DNA of 64,000 nt from an uncultured Candidatus Rokubacteria bacterium (GTDB lineage Bacteria > Methylomirabilota > Methylomirabilia > Rokubacteriales > CSP1-6). The stretch is from contig CAVVEU010000024.1 in assembly GCA_963747235.1 (NCBI GenBank), positions 544,001-608,000 of the forward strand, in the 5' to 3' direction. Each line of letters begins with the position of its first letter. Within the stretch, counting starts at the first letter, position 1. The notes beneath the pieces were generated by a model, which worked only from the letters and a program-made list of their open reading frames with translations, did no database searches and was not told the DNA's origin. The position numbers and the translations under genes are program-made. Below, piece after piece: positions 35,564 through 43,496 of this stretch.

Positions 35564-36850
35564 GTGGAGCCGTCGACGGACGAGAGCGTGCGCGCGCGCC
35601 TGGCCGAGGTGTTCCGGCTCGAGTACGCGCGGGTGGTCGCCTCGGTGCTGCGGATCGTGCGCGACATCGACGCGGCGCAGGAGGTGGTCCAGGAGGCCTT
35701 CGAGCAGGCGCTCGATCACTGGCCCGCGGACGGCATCCCGGATCGTCCGGGCGCGTGGCTGCTCACCACGGCGCGCCGCCGGGCGCTCGATCATCTGCGG
35801 CGCGTCCGCCGGGCCGGCGCGCGCGTGGACGCCCTCGCCCACGAGGCGCTCGGCGCGGCGCACCCGGCGCCTGACGTGCCCAGCTTCGAGACGCCCGACG
35901 AGATCCCCGACGATCGGCTCCGGCTGATCTTCACCTGCTGCCATCCCGCGCTCCCCGCCGACAGCCGCGTCGCGCTCACGCTGCGGCTGGTCGGCGGTCT
36001 CTCGACGACGGAGATCGCGCGCGCGTTCCTGGTGCCCGAGCCGACGATCGCCCAGCGCCTGGTGCGCGCGAAGCGGACGATCCGCGACGGCGGCTTCCCG
36101 TACGAGGTGCCGGAAGGGGTCGAGCTCGCGTCGCGGCTGTCGGCCGTGCTCGCGGTGCTGTACCTGATCTTCAACGAGGGCTACGCGGCCCATTCGGGCG
36201 ACGACCTCGTGCGGCACGATCTCTGCGAGGAGGCGATCCGTCTCGGCCGCGTGCTCGCCGAGCTGATGCCGCGCGAGCCCGAGGTGCTGGGCTTGCTGGC
36301 CCTGATGGAGCTCCAGACCTCCCGCGCGGCGGCGCGCACCGACGCCGACGGCAATCTGGTGCTGCTCGAGGATCAGGACCGGCTGCCGCTGGGACCGGGC
36401 GCCGGATCGCGCGGGGCCTCGCCTGTCTCGAGCGCGCCGGGCCGTCGGCGCGCGCGGGGGCCTATCAGCTCCAGGCCGCCATCGCCGCCTGTCACGCGCA
36501 GGCCGCCATCGTGGGAGGCGACGGACTGGCCGCGCATCGTGGGCCACTACCGGGCGCTCGCGGCGCTCGCCCCGTCGCCCGGTCGTCGACCTGAACCTGG
36601 CGGTGGCGATCGGTCTGGCCGACGGGCCCGCGGCGGGCCTGGCGGCGCTCGATCGGATCGACGACCTGGCGCTGCGCGCCTATCATCTGCTGCCCGCCGC
36701 GCGCGCCGAGTTCCTCCGCCGCCTCGGCCGCGCCCCGGAGGCCGCCGTCGAGTACCGGCGCGCGCTCCGCCTCGTGGACAACCCGCGCGAGCAGGTGTTC
36801 CTGGCGCGCGGCTGGCGGCCTGCGAGCCGGGGGGTGGCTCGGGCGCGTAG
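35564..36850 (+). CDS. ECF sigma factor with C-terminal TPR-like extension (ECF42-type), frameshifts in 3' third
   Basis: PGAWLLTTARRR, DDRLRLIFTCCHPAL, QRLVRAK, LYLIFNEGY, TDWPRI. Confidence 0.9.
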   Translation: MEPSTDESVRARLAEVFRLEYARVVASVLRIVRDIDAAQEVVQEAFEQALDHWPADGIPDRPGAWLLTTARRRALDHLRRVRRAGARVDALAHEALGAAHPAPDVPSFETPDEIPDDRLRLIFTCCHPALPADSRVALTLRLVGGLSTTEIARAFLVPEPTIAQRLVRAKRTIRDGGFPYEVPEGVELASRLSAVLAVLYLIFNEGYAAHSGDDLVRHDLCEEAIRLGRVLAELMPREPEVLGLLALMELQTSRAAARTDADGNLVLLEDQDRLPLGPGAGSRGASPVSSAPGRRRARGPISSRPPSPPVTRRPPSWEATDWPRIVGHYRALAALAPSPGRRPEPGGGDRSGRRARGGPGGARSDRRPGAARLSSAARRARRVPPPPRPRPGGRRRVPARAPPRGQPARAGVPGARLAACEPGGGSGA

Positions 36851-39641: not shown

Positions 39642-40631
39642 GTGGCGAGCGAGACGCCCCGCGCGGGCGCGCCGGCCCTGCCGCCGCACACGCCCCCTCA
39701 GAACGTCGAGGGGCAGCAGTGGGCGATCGAGCGCCGCCTGGGCGAGATCTTCGGCAAGCTCGGCGAGAAGCTCGCCGAGCTCACCGGGCGCGTCGAGGTG
39801 CAGGTCAAGCCGGAGACCTCGTTCGCCGACATCGGCGGCCTCGCCGAGGCCAAGGGCATCGTGCGGAGCTTCGTGACCGCGCTGACCGATCCCGAGCTGT
39901 ATCGCAAGTGGGGCATCGCCCCGCCCAAGGGCATGCTGATCTACGGGCCGCCGGGCACCGGCAAGACGCTGCTGGCGCGCGCGCTCGCCACCGAGGCGGG
40001 GGCCGTCTTCTACCACCTGAAGCTCGGCACGCTCACCGCCAAGTTCGGGCCCAATACCGGCGAGCTGCTGCAGGAGATCCTGGGCCTGGCGCGCGAGCAG
40101 GGCCGGGCGGTGGTGTTCCTCGATCAGGCCGACGCGCTCGCGCTCGAGCATCTCCTGCCGCCGGCCCAGGCCCGCGAGGCGGGCGCCCGCATCGTGGCCG
40201 CGCTCTGCGAAAAGCTCGATACCCTGGAAGCTTTCTCTCGGATCGTCGTGGTGGCGGCCACCAGCCGCACCGACGTGGTGGATCCCTCCCTGGTGGCCCC
40301 GGGCCGGCTCGATCGGCTGGTCGAGGTGCCGCTGCCGGACGCGGTCGCGCAGCAGCAGATCCTCGAGCTGACGCGGACGCGCGCCGAGCAGGCCGCCGAT
40401 CGGCGGCTCGTGGGCGATCTCGACTACCGCTCCCTGCTGCCGCCGATGGGCGGCATGAGCGGGGGCGAGCTCCGCGATCTGCTGCGCCGCGCGCTCGAGG
40501 AGAAGGTCCACGCGGCCGGGCAAGGCCAGGACGCGGGACTCGTCACCACCCAGGACCTGCTGCGCCAGGTGGACGTGTACCGGCGCATCCGGGCCGTCGT
40601 CGAGAAGATCCGCTACGGGCAGTACCTCTAG
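39642..40631 (+). CDS. Single-domain classic-clade AAA protein, degenerate catalytic motifs, C-terminal GQYL
   Basis: SFADIGGL, PPKGMLIYGPPGTGKTLLARA, VVFLDQAD, AATSR, DPSLVAPGRLDR, GMSGGEL; ends KIRYGQYL*. Confidence 0.9.
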   Translation: MASETPRAGAPALPPHTPPQNVEGQQWAIERRLGEIFGKLGEKLAELTGRVEVQVKPETSFADIGGLAEAKGIVRSFVTALTDPELYRKWGIAPPKGMLIYGPPGTGKTLLARALATEAGAVFYHLKLGTLTAKFGPNTGELLQEILGLAREQGRAVVFLDQADALALEHLLPPAQAREAGARIVAALCEKLDTLEAFSRIVVVAATSRTDVVDPSLVAPGRLDRLVEVPLPDAVAQQQILELTRTRAEQAADRRLVGDLDYRSLLPPMGGMSGGELRDLLRRALEEKVHAAGQGQDAGLVTTQDLLRQVDVYRRIRAVVEKIRYGQYL

Positions 40632-40649
40632 CCCGAGCGAGGAGGCATC

Positions 40650-41396
40650 ATGCGCACACGTCGAGGAGTGAGGCACTGGTCCGGCTGGCTGGCCGTCGCG
40701 GCGGTCCTGTTCGTGCTGACGGGACCGGCCGGCGCGCAGTGGGACAAGCTGCTGAAGGGGCTGGGCGGCGGGGAGGGGAGCGCGGGCGCGGGGCTGTCGG
40801 ACGCCAAGATCGGCGCGGGGCTCAAGGAGGCGCTCCAGGTGGCCACCGAGAAGACGGTGAGCCTCACCGGAAAGACCGACGGCTACTTCTCCAACCAGGC
40901 CATCAAGATCCTGATGCCGGAGAAGCTGCGGAATTTCGAGAGCGGGCTGCGCGCGGTGGGCTTCGGTGGGCAGGTCGACGAGCTGGTGCTCGGCATGAAC
41001 CGCGCCGCGGAGCGCGCCGCGCCGCAGGCCAAGCAGATCTTCTTCGACGCCATCGGCGCGATGAGCTTCGACGACGCCCGCAAGCTCCTGAACGGCGGGG
41101 ACACCGCGGCCACCGAGTACTTTCGCGGCAAGACCACGCCGCGGCTGACCACCGCGTTCCGGCCGGCGGTCGAGCAGTCCATGAATCAGGTCGGCGTGAG
41201 CCGGCAGTACAAGGATCTGGTCGGGCGCTTCGAGTCGATCCCGTTCGCCAAGTCCCAGGCCTTCGACCTGGACGGCTACGTCGTGGACCAAGGGCTGGGC
41301 GGGCTCTTCACGGTGCTGGCGGAGCAGGAGAAGCAGATCCGCACCAACCCGACCGCCCGCGCCACCGATCTCCTGAAGGAAGTCTTCAAGCGCTAG
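40650..41396 (+). CDS. DUF4197-family secreted protein
   Basis: Signal peptide; [37 protein letters not shown]. Confidence 0.88.
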
Positions 41397-41430: not shown

Positions 41431-41853
41431 ATGCCATCGGTCACCCGCGTGCGCGTGCGCTACAAGGACACCGACACCATGTCGGTCGTCTACTACGGCA
41501 ACTACCTGACCTACTTCGAGGTGGGGCGCGTGGAGTTCCTGCGCGAGTACGGCTGGCCCATGTCGGCGGTGAACGAGCGCGTGCACCTGCCGGTGGTGGA
41601 AGCCTTCGTGAAGTACGTGAAGCCGGCGAAGCTCGACGATCTGCTGGAAGTCGTCTCGCGGGTGAGCGAGCGCAAGCGGGCCAGCTTCCGGTTCAGCTAC
41701 GAGATCCGCAACGAGGCCAAGGAGCTGGTGGCCACCGGGCACACCGTGCACGCCTGCTGGAACCCGGCCACCGCCAAGATGATTCCCATCCCGGACTGGC
41801 TGAAGGAGATCATGCCCGATGCCGACCTCGACCCCGTCACGCCCCGACGCTGA
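41431..41853 (+). CDS. Acyl-CoA thioesterase (YbgC/4HBT family)
   Basis: [26 protein letters not shown]. Confidence 0.88.
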
Positions 41854-43496
41854 CCGGCAGCCCCGGCCGATCGCCGAGATCGCGCGCGAGCTCGGCCTCG
41901 GCCCGGAGGAGTGGATCCCCTACGGCCACGACAAGGCCAAGGTGCGCGTCGGCGCGCTGGCCGCCCGCCGCGATCGGCCCGACGGCAAGCTCGTGGTGGT
42001 GTCGTCCATCACCCCGACCCCGGCCGGCGACGGCAAGACCACCATGACCATCGGCATCGGGCAGGCGCTGTCGCGCGTCGGCGCCCGGCCGGTGATCGCG
42101 CTGCGCGAGCCGTCCATCGGGCCGACGCTCGGCATGAAGGGCGGCGGCACCGGGGGCGGCAAGGCGCAGGTGGTGCCGATGGAGGAGATCAACCTCCACT
42201 TCACCGGCGACTTCCACGCGATCACCTCGGCGCACAACCTGCTCGCCGCCGCCATCGACAACCACCTCCACCACGGCAACCCGCTCGGCATCGACGTCCG
42301 CCAGGTGGCGTGGAAGCGCGTCCTCGACGTCAACGACCGCGCCCTGCGCAGCGTGGTGGTCGGGCTCGGCGGGCGCCTCGACGGCGTGCCGCGCGAGGCG
42401 GGCTTCCTCATCACCTCGGCCTCCGAGATCATGGCCGCGCTCTGCCTGGCCGAGGACCTGATGGATCTCAAGCAGCGGCTCGGCCGGATGCTGGTCGCGC
42501 TGACCGCCGACGGCAAGCCGGTGACCGCCGACGCGCTCGGGGTGACCGGCGCGATGATCGCGCTGCTGCGCGACGCCATCCACCCGAACCTGGTGCAGAC
42601 GATGGAGGGCACGCCCGCGCTGGTGCACGGGGGGCCGTTCGCCAACATCGCCCACGGCTGCAACTCGGTGCTGGCCACCCGGCTCGCGCTCAAGCTCGGC
42701 GACATCTGCCTCACCGAGGCGGGCTTCGCCACCGACCTGGGCGCCGAGAAGTTCTTCGACATCAAGTGCCGGCTCGCGGGGCTCACGGCCCGACGCGGCC
42801 ATGATCGTGGCCACCGCGCGGGCGCTCAAGTACCACGGCGGGGTGCCGGTGCCGGAGCTGGACCGGGAGAACGTGGCCGCGCTCACCCTCGGACTCGACA
42901 ACCTGGAGGCGCACGTGGACGCGGTGCGCCAGTTCAAGGTGCCGGTCCTCATCGGGATGAATCGCTACCCGTCGGACACCGAGGCGGAATACGCGGCGGT
43001 GCGGGAGCGCTGCGCGCGGCTCGGGGTGGCGGTGCACGTGGCCGACGTGTTCGGGCGCGGGGGCGCGGGCGGCGAGGAGCTGGCCCGGGGCCTGCTCGCC
43101 CTCCTGGCCCGGGAGCGCTCGGCCTTCGCGCCGCTCTACGCGCTCGACGACCCCATCACGGTGAAGCTCGACACCATCGCGCGGCGGATCTACGGCGCCG
43201 ACGGCGTCGAATATCCCAAGCGGGTCGAGCGTCAGATCGCGCAGGCCGAATCCCTCGGCTACGGGAGGCTACCGATCTGCGTCGCGAAGACCCAGCGCTC
43301 GCTGTCCGACGATCCGGCCCTGCTGAATCGCCCCCGCGGGTTCAAGATCACCGTCAACGAGATCCGCATCTCGGCGGGCGCCGGCTTCCTGGTGGCCATC
43401 ACCGGTGACATCACCACCATGCCCGGGCTGCCGCGCCGTCCCAACGCCGAGAAGGTGGACGTCACGCCGGACGGCGTCATCACGGGGCTCTTCTAG
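41819..43496 (+). CDS. fhs: Formate-tetrahydrofolate ligase, frameshift ~42790
   Basis: [54 protein letters not shown] end. Confidence 0.95.

Follow-up and report, generated by a model that had tools for sequence, protein, structure and literature searches.

The gene described here lies in a 64,000-nucleotide stretch of DNA (hereafter the window) from the genome of an uncultivated soil bacterium of the Methylomirabilota/Rokubacteria. It encodes a protein of 329 residues, which a first-pass annotation had read as a single AAA module with an intact Walker A motif (GPPGTGKT) and four deviant functional sites. The list of open reading frames and the positions of the motifs bear out the single module, the Walker A and the four deviant sites, and the raw sequence has CAG at 40125-40127. 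The gene and its features, in window coordinates, are as follows.

39642..40631, + strand: coding sequence of a 329-aa single-AAA protein with a KIRYGQYL end; GTG start, TAG stop at 40629-40631; PF00004 at 8.7e-27
39705..39761, + strand: N-terminal amphipathic helix, residues 22-40 (DSSP on the model, H22-40); family consensus WALQRRLEDVFAKLGEKFGDLTGRVE conserved
39945..39968, + strand: Walker A GPPGTGKT, residues 102-109; K108 invariant in the family
40041..40052, + strand: pore loop 1 KFGP, residues 134-137, replacing K-aromatic-hydrophobic-G
40110..40127, + strand: Walker B VVFLDQ, residues 157-162; Q162 (CAG at 40125-40127) replaces the catalytic Glu
40254..40268, + strand: sensor-1 region AATSR, residues 205-209; S208 replaces Asn
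40290..40316, + strand: second region of homology (SRH) LVAPGRLDR, residues 217-225; first arginine finger replaced by A219
40548..40613, + strand: long C-terminal helix carrying the tail, residues 303-324 (DSSP on the model, H303-324), then five non-helical residues
40605..40628, + strand: tail KIRYGQYL, residues 322-329, sharing its final four residues with the genome's Mpa and Bpa

The annotated GTG start is supported by the orthologues, whose starts coincide with it and several of which use ATG. In HMMER alignments to solved VAT/Cdc48 chains, Q162 falls under the Walker B Glu, S208 under the Asn of ATNR, A219 under the first Arg of RPGRFDR and KFGP under KYYG/KWVG, so all four deviations are real. 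Measured against the full catalytic set (Walker B DE, sensor-1 Asn and two SRH arginines), the protein has DQ, S208 and A219 and keeps R222. The pore loop keeps its aromatic residue, F135, and is changed at the next two positions (hydrophobic to G, and G to P). A sequencing error at the CAG codon is ruled out, as DQ is common to 12 of the 70 species-level rows. Among the differences listed for contigs from public sequencing runs, none falls at 40125-40127; a further 283 differences lie outside those listed, and the comparison adds little. One 1041-nt contig (X15), from a run recorded as a metatranscriptome, covers 39953-40993 with 37 differences; it is that of a relative, and DNA carry-over is possible.

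The gene lies outside the proteasome operon, and its neighbours vary by lineage and are unrelated to proteolysis. In the window these are genes for a BFN-domain protein, a DUF4197 protein and a thioesterase, with the DUF4197 gene sitting between the AAA gene and the thioesterase. The order BFN-domain gene, AAA gene, thioesterase is kept only within one taxonomic family (f1); a BFN-domain gene is adjacent in 37 of the 62 loci with room for it and a DUF4197 gene in 10 of 67. Lineages with canonical members of the AAA family have DUF72, GNAT and GntR genes as neighbours. As the order is restricted to f1 and the neighbours in other lineages are unrelated, we dropped gene neighbourhood as a clue to function.

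Family assignment and predicted fold

Pfam assigns the protein one PF00004 AAA domain, at 94.6 bits against a cut-off of 21.2, and the GK[ST] of the P-loop is present. The best NCBIfam models are those for PAN (181 bits), Cdc48 (160), FtsH (129) and Mpa (106), and all of these scores lie far under their cut-offs. The PAN models (TIGR01242 / NF003069) give 173-181 bits against a cut-off of 500 and align to residues 24-284, covering the AAA part only. With the Mpa/ARC model TIGR03689, the protein scores 105.7 bits against a cut-off of 504.75, whereas the genome's true Mpa scores 759.9; with the Cdc48/Cpa model TIGR01243, it scores 160 bits against 802.65, and its 329 residues hold one AAA domain. 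PF10759, the Bpa domain, is absent from its Pfam matches. The earlier statement that the protein is neither Mpa, Cpa nor Bpa is therefore upheld.

An AlphaFold2 model (mean pLDDT 91.1, pTM 0.85) finds its best structural matches in the AAA domains of PAN, 3whk and 3h4m, with TM-scores of 0.89-0.90 normalised to the target. In this model a long last helix is followed by a free tail, and helix 22-40 is the sole element N-terminal of the AAA fold, with no coiled-coil or OB domain. PAN, like Rpt1-6, resembles the protein in its classic-clade AAA module, where the best NCBIfam and structural matches lie, and in the way that the long last helix leads directly into a short docking tail with a penultimate tyrosine. 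Unlike PAN, the 329-residue protein is without a coiled-coil/OB N-domain (the alignment begins at residue 24), ends in GQYL rather than HbYX, is bacterial, and has degenerate catalytic residues in the window's lineage.

The known bacterial activators differ from it in other ways. Mpa/ARC has the AAA fold and the GQYL C-terminus and is encoded in the same genome together with the 20S, but the AAA protein is without the coiled-coil, double OB and beta-grasp domains, and no Pup-binding element is evident in it. The tail of Mpa is buried by its beta-grasp domain, according to the passage on Mpa in a 2025 review (PMC12288473). Bpa/PafE (PF10759) also has the GQYL C-terminus, and its role without ATP hydrolysis is one that we propose for the AAA protein; its fold, however, is unrelated, and the AAA protein keeps a P-loop, whereas Bpa forms dodecamers and binds no nucleotide as described in the corresponding passage of the same review (PMC12288473). 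Cpa, a Cdc48-like actinobacterial AAA protein, is reported to interact with the 20S, its role being called unresolved in the passages that treat it (PMC12288473, PMC6017811). In the portion of PMC6017811 that concerns Cpa, it is described as having two AAA rings but neither GQYL nor HbYX, and binding is not mediated by its last five residues; the AAA protein, in contrast, has one AAA module and an invariant tail.

A truncated Mpa or a pseudogene is ruled out by the family scores, the tree, the dN/dS values and the intact reading frames in about 200 genomes. PAN is the nearest match to the family, which does not represent a shortened Mpa. Its sister group consists of proteins of 478-544 aa.

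The tail and the catalytic sites across the family

The 5.57-Mb genome has 26,640 stop-to-stop frames of 100 aa or longer, and GQYL closes 3 of them, where 0.012 would be expected from position-wise residue frequencies; the three are Mpa, Bpa and the AAA protein. The remaining 23 orderings of these four residues end none of the frames. Thus, the GQYL end that the first-pass annotation had singled out is confirmed, and it is shared with both activators of the same genome. GQYL is needed for 20S activation by Mpa and PafE, as stated in the relevant passages of two sources (PMC12288473, PMC6017811).

The tail is kept in 118 of 120 homologues at 70-96% identity, gathered by whole-length similarity, and in cluster representatives at 63, 43 and 39% identity, neither set of rows having been selected by the tail; 39% is the lowest identity to which it is kept across the family. 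It is also kept in all four orthologues examined from a second taxonomic family (f2), which are 51-56% identical, were found by homology alone and end in VKIRYGQYL. It is, then, a docking motif with a penultimate tyrosine, at the extreme C-terminus and conserved among relatives. The nearly invariant segment spans nine residues, EKIRYGQYL, which is more than GQYL docking is known to need, and so another partner is possible.

The catalytic sites behave differently from the tail. Among 121 rows, the last position of Walker B is E in 92, Q in 27 and D in 2 (DE in 53 of 70 species-level rows), the sensor-1 position is N in 54, S in 45, H in 14, A in 7 and D in 1, and the first SRH arginine is A in 98 and R in 9; the second, R222, is invariant in the family. 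Among 70 rows, the last residue of Walker A is T in 37, S in 20 and A in 13, and pore loop 1 is of the KFG/KFA type in 55, KW in 14 and KGPDIT in 1. Sensor-1, Walker A and Walker B thus vary freely among close relatives (N/S/H/A/D; T/S/A; E/Q/D) while the tail does not, a pattern expected if hydrolysis is not under selection. Of the joint conservation of DQ, TSR and GQYL that the first-pass annotation had proposed to test, the GQYL part stands (118/120) and the DQ and TSR parts do not, as both vary among homologues.

The AAA family is phylum-wide, occurring in at least 202 of the 251 Methylomirabilota genomes. In a rooted tree, the pore loop, DE, sensor-1 N and R are all canonical in the basal members, and a long branch leads to the degenerate clade; DQ is placed in a subclade of six rows that includes the window's gene (SH-aLRT 100%) and in one other row. 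With canonical basal members and DQ confined largely to a small subclade, the description 'catalytically degenerate' fits the lineage of the window and fails for the family. Within the DQ clade, dN/dS is 0.12-0.17 in 9 of 9 pairs, indicating purifying selection on the gene. The family seems to be undescribed: among the titles and abstracts listed for published work on GQYL and on the proteasomes of Rokubacteria and Methylomirabilota, none deals with it, and supplementary phylogenomic tables on Pup-proteasome distribution might list such genes.

Proteasome genes in the genome and the phylum

The first-pass annotation, which noted that the window holds no proteasome genes, had inferred the partner of the tail. 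The window is indeed free of them, but the genome encodes a complete Pup-proteasome system: an operon about 151 kb downstream on the same contig (C24:735482-741930) carries PafA, PrcA, PrcB, Dop and Mpa, and further genes, for Pup and Bpa, lie on contigs C8 and C13, respectively. The genome's Mpa has 610 aa. K52 of PrcA, which we take from the mycobacterial literature to be the pocket lysine, occurs in all of the aligned PrcA sequences (26 of 26). According to the part of a 2025 review that deals with it (PMC12288473), a conserved lysine of the alpha subunit is needed. A complex prediction with two PrcA copies and residues 234-329 of the AAA protein, supplied as alignments and run without controls, scored 0.00 and 0.10, where the mark is 0.32, and we count it neither way. 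HslV is ruled out as an alternative partner, as the adjoining HslU has a tail of its own (SRYIL).

If the tail serves the 20S, then the two might be expected to occur together, and the first-pass annotation had asked whether homologues are found only with 20S genes. To cross-tabulate them by hand over 251 genomes, we scored the tail by a short C-terminal pattern that covers f2. Both tail and PrcA are present in 159 genomes, the tail only in 43, PrcA only in 37 and neither in 12. Exclusive co-occurrence does not emerge from the table, which shows no association. PrcA is found in 196 of the 251 genomes, and because it is near-universal whether the tail is present or not, co-occurrence within the phylum is uninformative.

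Among the families of the phylum, just one (f6) was without PrcA and Mpa, in 2 of 2 genomes that are each 100% complete, and the AAA protein is missing there too. In f13, PrcA is present in 18 of 20 genomes and the tail in 2 of 20; this family keeps the 20S mostly without the AAA protein, which is therefore dispensable for the 20S. In f10, all six genomes have the tail and none has PrcA (0/6), but fragments of PafA, Dop and PrcB lie at contig ends in 2 of the 5 genomes searched, and Mpa is present in both, also at contig ends, which weakens f10 as a counter-example. In three genomes that are 92-100% complete and carry the tail (G219, G218 and G136), PrcA and Pup-ligase genes were not found. 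For G219 (100% complete) and G218, both of genus g46, Mpa too was not found, and Bpa was. Of the 42 'tail only' genomes tested, 8 have Bpa, these three, G154 and G223 among them; as Bpa is a dedicated 20S activator, its presence suggests that the bins, and not the cells, are what lack the 20S locus. PrcA matches in these assemblies often lie within about 1-2 kb of a contig start. The absences of PrcA are confounded by assembly gaps.

Possible roles at the proteasome gate

The reading we favour, with confidence a little short of even, is that the protein forms a ring lacking an N-domain, uses its tail to dock on the 20S, binds ATP but hydrolyses hardly any, if any at all, and either opens the gate or occupies it. 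The AAA module would form the ring upon ATP binding, assuming that a ring free of N-domains assembles, and the last helix would leave free KIRYGQYL tails protruding, an arrangement known from PAN and the Rpt subunits. To judge from the identical motifs, these tails would insert between PrcA subunits, in the pockets used by the GQYL of Mpa and Bpa. The ancestor was probably an active minimal unfoldase, basal members keeping the pore loop, DE, N and both arginines. Loss of the pore-loop motif and of the first arginine finger came on the Rokubacteria branch, followed by changes at sensor-1, at the Thr/Ser of Walker A and, in the subclade of the window's gene, at the Walker B Glu (to Gln). The comparison shows that the lysine of Walker A, the second arginine and the tail did not change and that the gene remained under purifying selection. 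The window protein is therefore most likely a ring that binds ATP and scarcely hydrolyses it, if at all, and we model it as a naturally ATP-locked proteasomal ATPase. Docked on the 20S, such a ring may keep the gate open to peptides and unfolded proteins, or may compete with Mpa and Bpa for the alpha ring.

A Walker B change from Glu to Gln blocks hydrolysis but leaves ATP binding intact, and PAN needs only to bind ATP, not to hydrolyse it, in order to dock and open the gate. The nearest comparison is with Walker B E-to-Q trap mutants and with PAN loaded with non-hydrolysable ATP, in which ATP is bound and not hydrolysed, as proposed here. Unlike the Q of the trap mutants, that of the AAA protein is natural, clade-fixed and under purifying selection, and the sensor-1 Asn and one arginine finger are missing as well. 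As K108, D161, R222 and the pore-loop Phe are retained, residual ATPase or translocation activity is possible. The proposal in full, namely that the family is a third GQYL cap built from a PAN-like module without an N-domain and that one branch has become an ATP-locked pseudo-ATPase, sensing or binding ATP and gating or blocking the 20S without unfolding, is tentative, something possible rather than probable.

The same tail could bring a working unfoldase to the 20S, perhaps a slow one, in which the deviant residues are tolerated or compensated and which would offer a minimal alternative to Mpa for Pup-independent substrates. The canonical basal members, the four residues retained in the window protein (K108, D161, R222 and F135) and purifying selection over the whole gene all speak for such an enzyme. 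We consider it unlikely, as four catalytic or translocation sites deviate together in the window protein, the catalytic sites of close relatives vary freely around a fixed tail, and Glu to Gln in Walker B is the classic hydrolysis-blocking change. Alternatively, the tail may have nothing to do with the 20S, the protein being a stand-alone AAA remodeller or nucleotide-binding scaffold whose EKIRYGQYL binds another partner or its own ring. The lack of an operon link with the proteasome, the 43 of 202 tail-bearing genomes without a detected PrcA (three of them, G219, G218 and G136, also without Pup-ligase genes) and the conservation of nine tail residues rather than four would fit, but it is very unlikely that the tail matches those of the cell's two 20S activators by chance, at 0.012 expected, Bpa is encoded in 8 of the 42 'tail only' genomes tested, pieces of PafA, Dop, PrcB and Mpa sit at contig ends in f10, PrcA matches often lie near contig starts, and HslV has its own tailed HslU; this explanation, too, has a small chance of being right.

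Chaperones of archaea and eukaryotes that bear HbYX act in 20S assembly, and a purely binding role as an assembly or maturation factor, with the tail holding alpha rings during assembly, would share the tail and partner evidence of the gate reading and suit the catalytic decay. It is nevertheless improbable, as f13 keeps its 20S mostly without the protein, the actinobacterial 20S is not known to need such a factor for its assembly, and an AAA ring differs in fold from the known assembly chaperones. Poisoning or tuning of Mpa hexamers by a mixed-in subunit, which the first-pass annotation had raised, is very improbable indeed. The AAA fold and the tail are common to both proteins, and in one genome (G020) an Mpa-like gene is convergent with the AAA gene, 117 bp apart; however, coiled-coil and OB domains drive hexamer formation in Mpa and PAN, and the AAA protein has neither, which makes a mixed hexamer unlikely. 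It also reaches only 105.7 bits against the Mpa cut-off of 504.75, and its family is a separate clade nearer PAN and Cdc48.

The passage of a 2025 minireview on activator association with the 20S calls its regulation unknown and adds that Mpa seems to need further factors (PMC12288473). The known bacterial proteasome activators comprise two GQYL-tailed ones, Mpa/ARC and Bpa/PafE, and the tail-less Cpa; the AAA family would add a third protein with a GQYL tail, built on another AAA scaffold without any substrate-recognition domain, and most genomes of this widespread soil phylum encode it. If the tail binds something else, GQYL would not be a proteasome-specific signature, which is also worth knowing. 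If 20S binding is true, the set of bacterial proteasome caps would be wider, and if the tentative proposal of an ATP-locked pseudo-ATPase at the gate also holds, the ring would be the first regulator in nature known to act on activator occupancy at a bacterial proteasome. The series from canonical ATPase to Walker-B-Q proteins without an arginine finger, all with the tail unchanged, is a natural experiment in what ATP binding alone does at the proteasome gate, and would exemplify an enzyme turning into a pseudoenzyme regulator.

A single AAA module with a GQYL end

The gene under study encodes a protein in which Pfam finds a single AAA domain (PF00004, 8.7e-27).

39642-40631, forward strand: AAA protein, GTG start, 329 aa, ending ...VVEKIRYGQYL-stop

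Its orthologues start at the same position, several of them with ATG. Among NCBIfam models the protein scores highest with PAN (181 bits), followed by Cdc48 (160), FtsH (129) and Mpa (106), every score lying far under the cut-off of its family. An AlphaFold2 model built with the family alignment (pLDDT 91.1, pTM 0.85) has, ahead of the AAA fold, a helix spanning residues 22-40; the last helix spans 303-324, and beyond it five residues are non-helical. Using Foldseek, we find that it most resembles the AAA domains of PAN (3whk and 3h4m; TM-score 0.89-0.90, normalised to target) and, after these, FtsH, p97 and Rpt chains. A last helix and then a tail likewise close PAN and the Rpt subunits, whereas in Mpa a beta-grasp domain tucks the tail away (PMC12288473).

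The first-pass annotation had pointed to four deviant functional sites, and these proved to be real, as the deviant residues fall under canonical columns in HMMER alignments to solved VAT/Cdc48 chains. Q162 stands in the Walker B glutamate column (the raw sequence at 40125-40127 is CAG), S208 in that of the sensor-1 asparagine, and A219 in that of the first SRH arginine, while KFGP replaces the KYYG/KWVG pore loop, though retaining its aromatic residue.

The loci of family f1 and of the lineages with canonical members that we examined hold no function-indicating neighbour. In f1, a BFN-domain gene precedes the AAA gene (next to it at 37 of the 62 loci with room) and a thioesterase gene lies downstream; in the window a DUF4197 gene, adjacent to the AAA gene in 10/67 loci, sits between the two. 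The neighbours in lineages with canonical members are DUF72, a GNAT acetyltransferase, GntR and IlvD. The BFN-domain gene of the window (PF02577; 39044-39637, forward strand) ends 4 nt ahead of the AAA start codon, and by eye the N-terminal 74 residues of its product contain a basic-then-hydrophobic stretch resembling a signal or membrane anchor. Elsewhere in the window, a formate-tetrahydrofolate ligase gene (41819-43496, forward strand) is split over two frames near 42790-42801, its pieces matching positions 10-321 and 327-556 of PF01268, which reflects either a frameshift or an assembly error; a gene at 35564-36400 (forward strand) joins an ECF-type sigma factor (Sigma70_r2 and r4_2) to DUF6596.

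The tail is conserved while ATPase residues decay stepwise

A whole-length homology search returned 120 proteins with 70-96% identity to the 329-aa protein, of which 118 end in GQYL. The names that homologues carry put the host in Methylomirabilota, alternatively called Rokubacteria or NC10. Among 1.84 billion cluster representatives, searched exhaustively, there are further full-length relatives at 63%, 43% and 39% identity and two fragments, all ending EK[IL]RYGQYL. The pattern EK.RYGQYL-stop occurs in at least 118 stretches of species-representative genomes; nearly all of the 80 loci listed carry Rokubacteria, Methylomirabilota or NC10 labels, and several labelled otherwise could be traced, through their contigs and coordinates, to genomes within this GTDB phylum. 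Within the phylum the pattern is present in 182/251 genomes and in 0/21 of family f2. Homology search nevertheless recovered f2 orthologues, 51-56% identical, in 9/9 genomes searched, and the 4/4 ends examined read VVKIRYGQYL. Because they were found by homology, these orthologues are a pattern-independent test of tail conservation, and the expectation that homologues would keep GQYL is borne out. KIRYGQYL-stop is found in 200/251 genomes (81/104 high-quality ones), and the union of both patterns covers 202/251. Homology search detected no orthologue in f13 (8 genomes; best matches two-domain AAA proteins ~40% identical) or f6 (2 genomes; best matches ~32% identical). Four genomes (G219, G112, G114, G039) have two or three tail matches, which may be either paralogues or repeats arising in assembly; the three in G039 have the same 30-nt match, and two of them lie at or near contig ends. 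Source databases call family members nothing more specific than 'ATP-binding protein' or '26S proteasome regulatory subunit'.

The catalytic sites behave differently from the tail.

Residues at functional sites among family members
Walker B, 121 close rows: E 92, Q 27, D 2
Sensor-1, 121 close rows: N 54, S 45, H 14, A 7, D 1
First arginine finger, 121 close rows: A 98, R 9, other 14
Walker B, 70 species-level rows: DE 53, DQ 12, EE 4, unreadable 1
Walker A last residue, 70 species-level rows: T 37, S 20, A 13
Pore loop, 70 species-level rows: KFG/KFA-type 55, KW-type 14, KGPDIT 1

Since the 70 species-level rows were chosen by their tail, they say nothing about its conservation. The proposal that Walker B Gln (DQ), sensor-1 Ser and GQYL are jointly conserved did not hold: the tail is kept, but the first two are present in just 27 and 45 of 121 rows. 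Invariant positions in a 58-row alignment include K108 (the Walker A lysine), K134, R222 (the second arginine) and residues 321-329. In a maximum-likelihood tree of these rows, rooted on a sister group that has canonical motifs but is extended at the N-terminus and lacks GQYL, the family is monophyletic (SH-aLRT 99%). Its basal rows have KWY[AG][DE]S, DE, N and R; a 41-row clade, set off by a long branch (0.79, support 100%), has KFG.NT and alanine at the arginine-finger position, and among its members decay extends to sensor-1, Walker A and Walker B. DQ marks a 6-row clade (support 100%) to which the window gene belongs, and is seen in one row besides. Between the window gene and nine DQ-clade members dN/dS is 0.12-0.17, which shows that selection maintains the degenerate protein. 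Collectively, these data establish a conserved PAN-like single-AAA family under selection, whose ATPase residues erode step by step, with the P-loop lysine, one arginine and the tail persisting.

The f2 orthologues (L170-L173) represent a second, independent route of catalytic decay: Walker A reads GPPGNGKT, Walker B either DD or ED and the pore loop K/R-VGP, with the tail VVKIRYGQYL. The sister group (P0175, P0191, P0199, P0211, P0245, P0247) consists of 478-544-aa AAA proteins, 37-43% identical, with canonical motifs and an N-terminal extra region of ~200 aa; some end ...GF-x rather than GQYL.

The 20S proteasome and its activators in the host and the phylum

In the host genome (5.57 Mb, 42 contigs, 88% complete), where the window occupies C24:544001-608000, we scanned all six frames for stop-to-stop stretches of 100 aa or more. 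Three of 26,640 end in GQYL, against 0.012 expected from position-wise frequencies, and no frame carries one of the remaining 23 permutations of G, Q, Y and L at its end. The second and third are the genome's Mpa (610 aa, ...VINTGQYL) and Bpa (163 aa, ...REPGQYL). The invariant end of the AAA protein is thus identical to the docking motif of the same cell's two known 20S activators. The partner that the first-pass annotation had inferred, the window having no proteasome genes, is present: the genome encodes a complete proteasome system.

Proteasome genes of the host genome
C24:735482-741930: PafA, PrcA, PrcB, Dop and Mpa, ~151 kb from the AAA gene on the same contig
Contig C8: Pup
Contig C13: Bpa

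HslU adjoins HslV in this genome. A weak fourth proteasome-family match (L004, G000:C40:484726-485277; PF00227, 25.5 bits, in a 303-aa open frame) is none of PrcA, PrcB or HslV.

Across the phylum, PrcA (TIGR03691) is found in 196/251 genomes and 90/104 high-quality ones. We tabulated tail against PrcA by hand from per-genome rows.

Tail and PrcA in 251 genomes
Tail found: PrcA found 159, PrcA not found 43
Tail not found: PrcA found 37, PrcA not found 12

The two show no association across the 251 genomes (PrcA in 79% of those with the tail versus 76% of those without). PrcA absences are unreliable, since PrcA matches are often found no more than 1-2 kb from the start of a contig, since Bpa is present at a separate locus in 8/42 'tail only' genomes tested (5/9 high-quality ones), and because of family f10. 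There the tail is in 6/6 genomes and PrcA in 0/6 (5/5 tail-only without G044), yet two of the five genomes searched have PafA, Dop and PrcB fragments at contig ends, and both have Mpa, again at contig ends. In many genomes of the phylum the Pup-proteasome operon is very often at contig ends or on very short contigs (G091:C379, G121:C61, G102:C142, G043:C139, G041:C543), and is therefore under-detected relative to stated completeness. In genus g46 (G218, 93% complete; G219, 100%), the tail protein and Bpa were found, while PrcA, Pup ligase and Mpa were not detected. PrcA, Mpa and the tail protein are all missing from both f6 genomes (each 100% complete); f13 has PrcA in 18/20 genomes and the tail in merely 2/20. 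The most divergent member (L059, 39% identical) has PrcA on the same contig, 171 kb off. These tallies include genomes flagged unpublished (G034, G044, G076, G216, G217), and no claim rests solely on them. In a single case (G020, family f7; L174:4169-7017, G020:C1:207168-210016), an Mpa-like gene ending GHYL instead of GQYL is convergent to the KIRYGQYL gene, 117 bp apart; PrcA of this genome is on another contig.

A candidate regulator of the 20S

The analogy we draw is mechanistic: PAN can dock on the 20S and open its gate with ATP bound but not hydrolysed, and a Walker B E-to-Q change blocks hydrolysis. Our finding would add to the AAA proteasome caps that dock by a C-terminal motif. Published work assigns GQYL to Mpa and PafE/Bpa (PMC12288473, PMC6017811), and describes Cpa as having no GQYL-like motif and binding without its C-terminus (PMC6017811). 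The authors of a ClpI paper argued against 20S binding from the lack of GQYL-like ends. PMC12288473 states that nothing is known of how activator association with the 20S is regulated. A full-text literature search, confined to the papers themselves as distinct from supplementary gene lists, found no description of this family.

The shared end suggests that the protein probably docks on the 20S in some manner; that its tail binds another partner, as genus g46 might hint, is unlikely. As to what docking would achieve, we tentatively favor a hydrolysis-impaired 20S cap or regulator. The protein would form a ring, insert its tail into PrcA pockets and, with hydrolysis presumably lost in its lineage, may act as gate opener or competitor. 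The canonical motifs of the basal rows and the retained pore-loop aromatic would suit a still-active minimal unfoldase that docks by its tail; the substitutions at four sites in the window protein would not, and we consider this rather unlikely. The same tail might serve a 20S assembly factor, which seems quite improbable next to the PAN-like fold, and a poison subunit of Mpa, whose profile the protein matches far below the cut-off, is the most improbable of all. The hydrolysis-impaired cap or regulator would be distinctive in its missing N-domain, in carrying a GQYL tail on a PAN-like scaffold, and in what may be a natural conversion towards a pseudo-ATPase.
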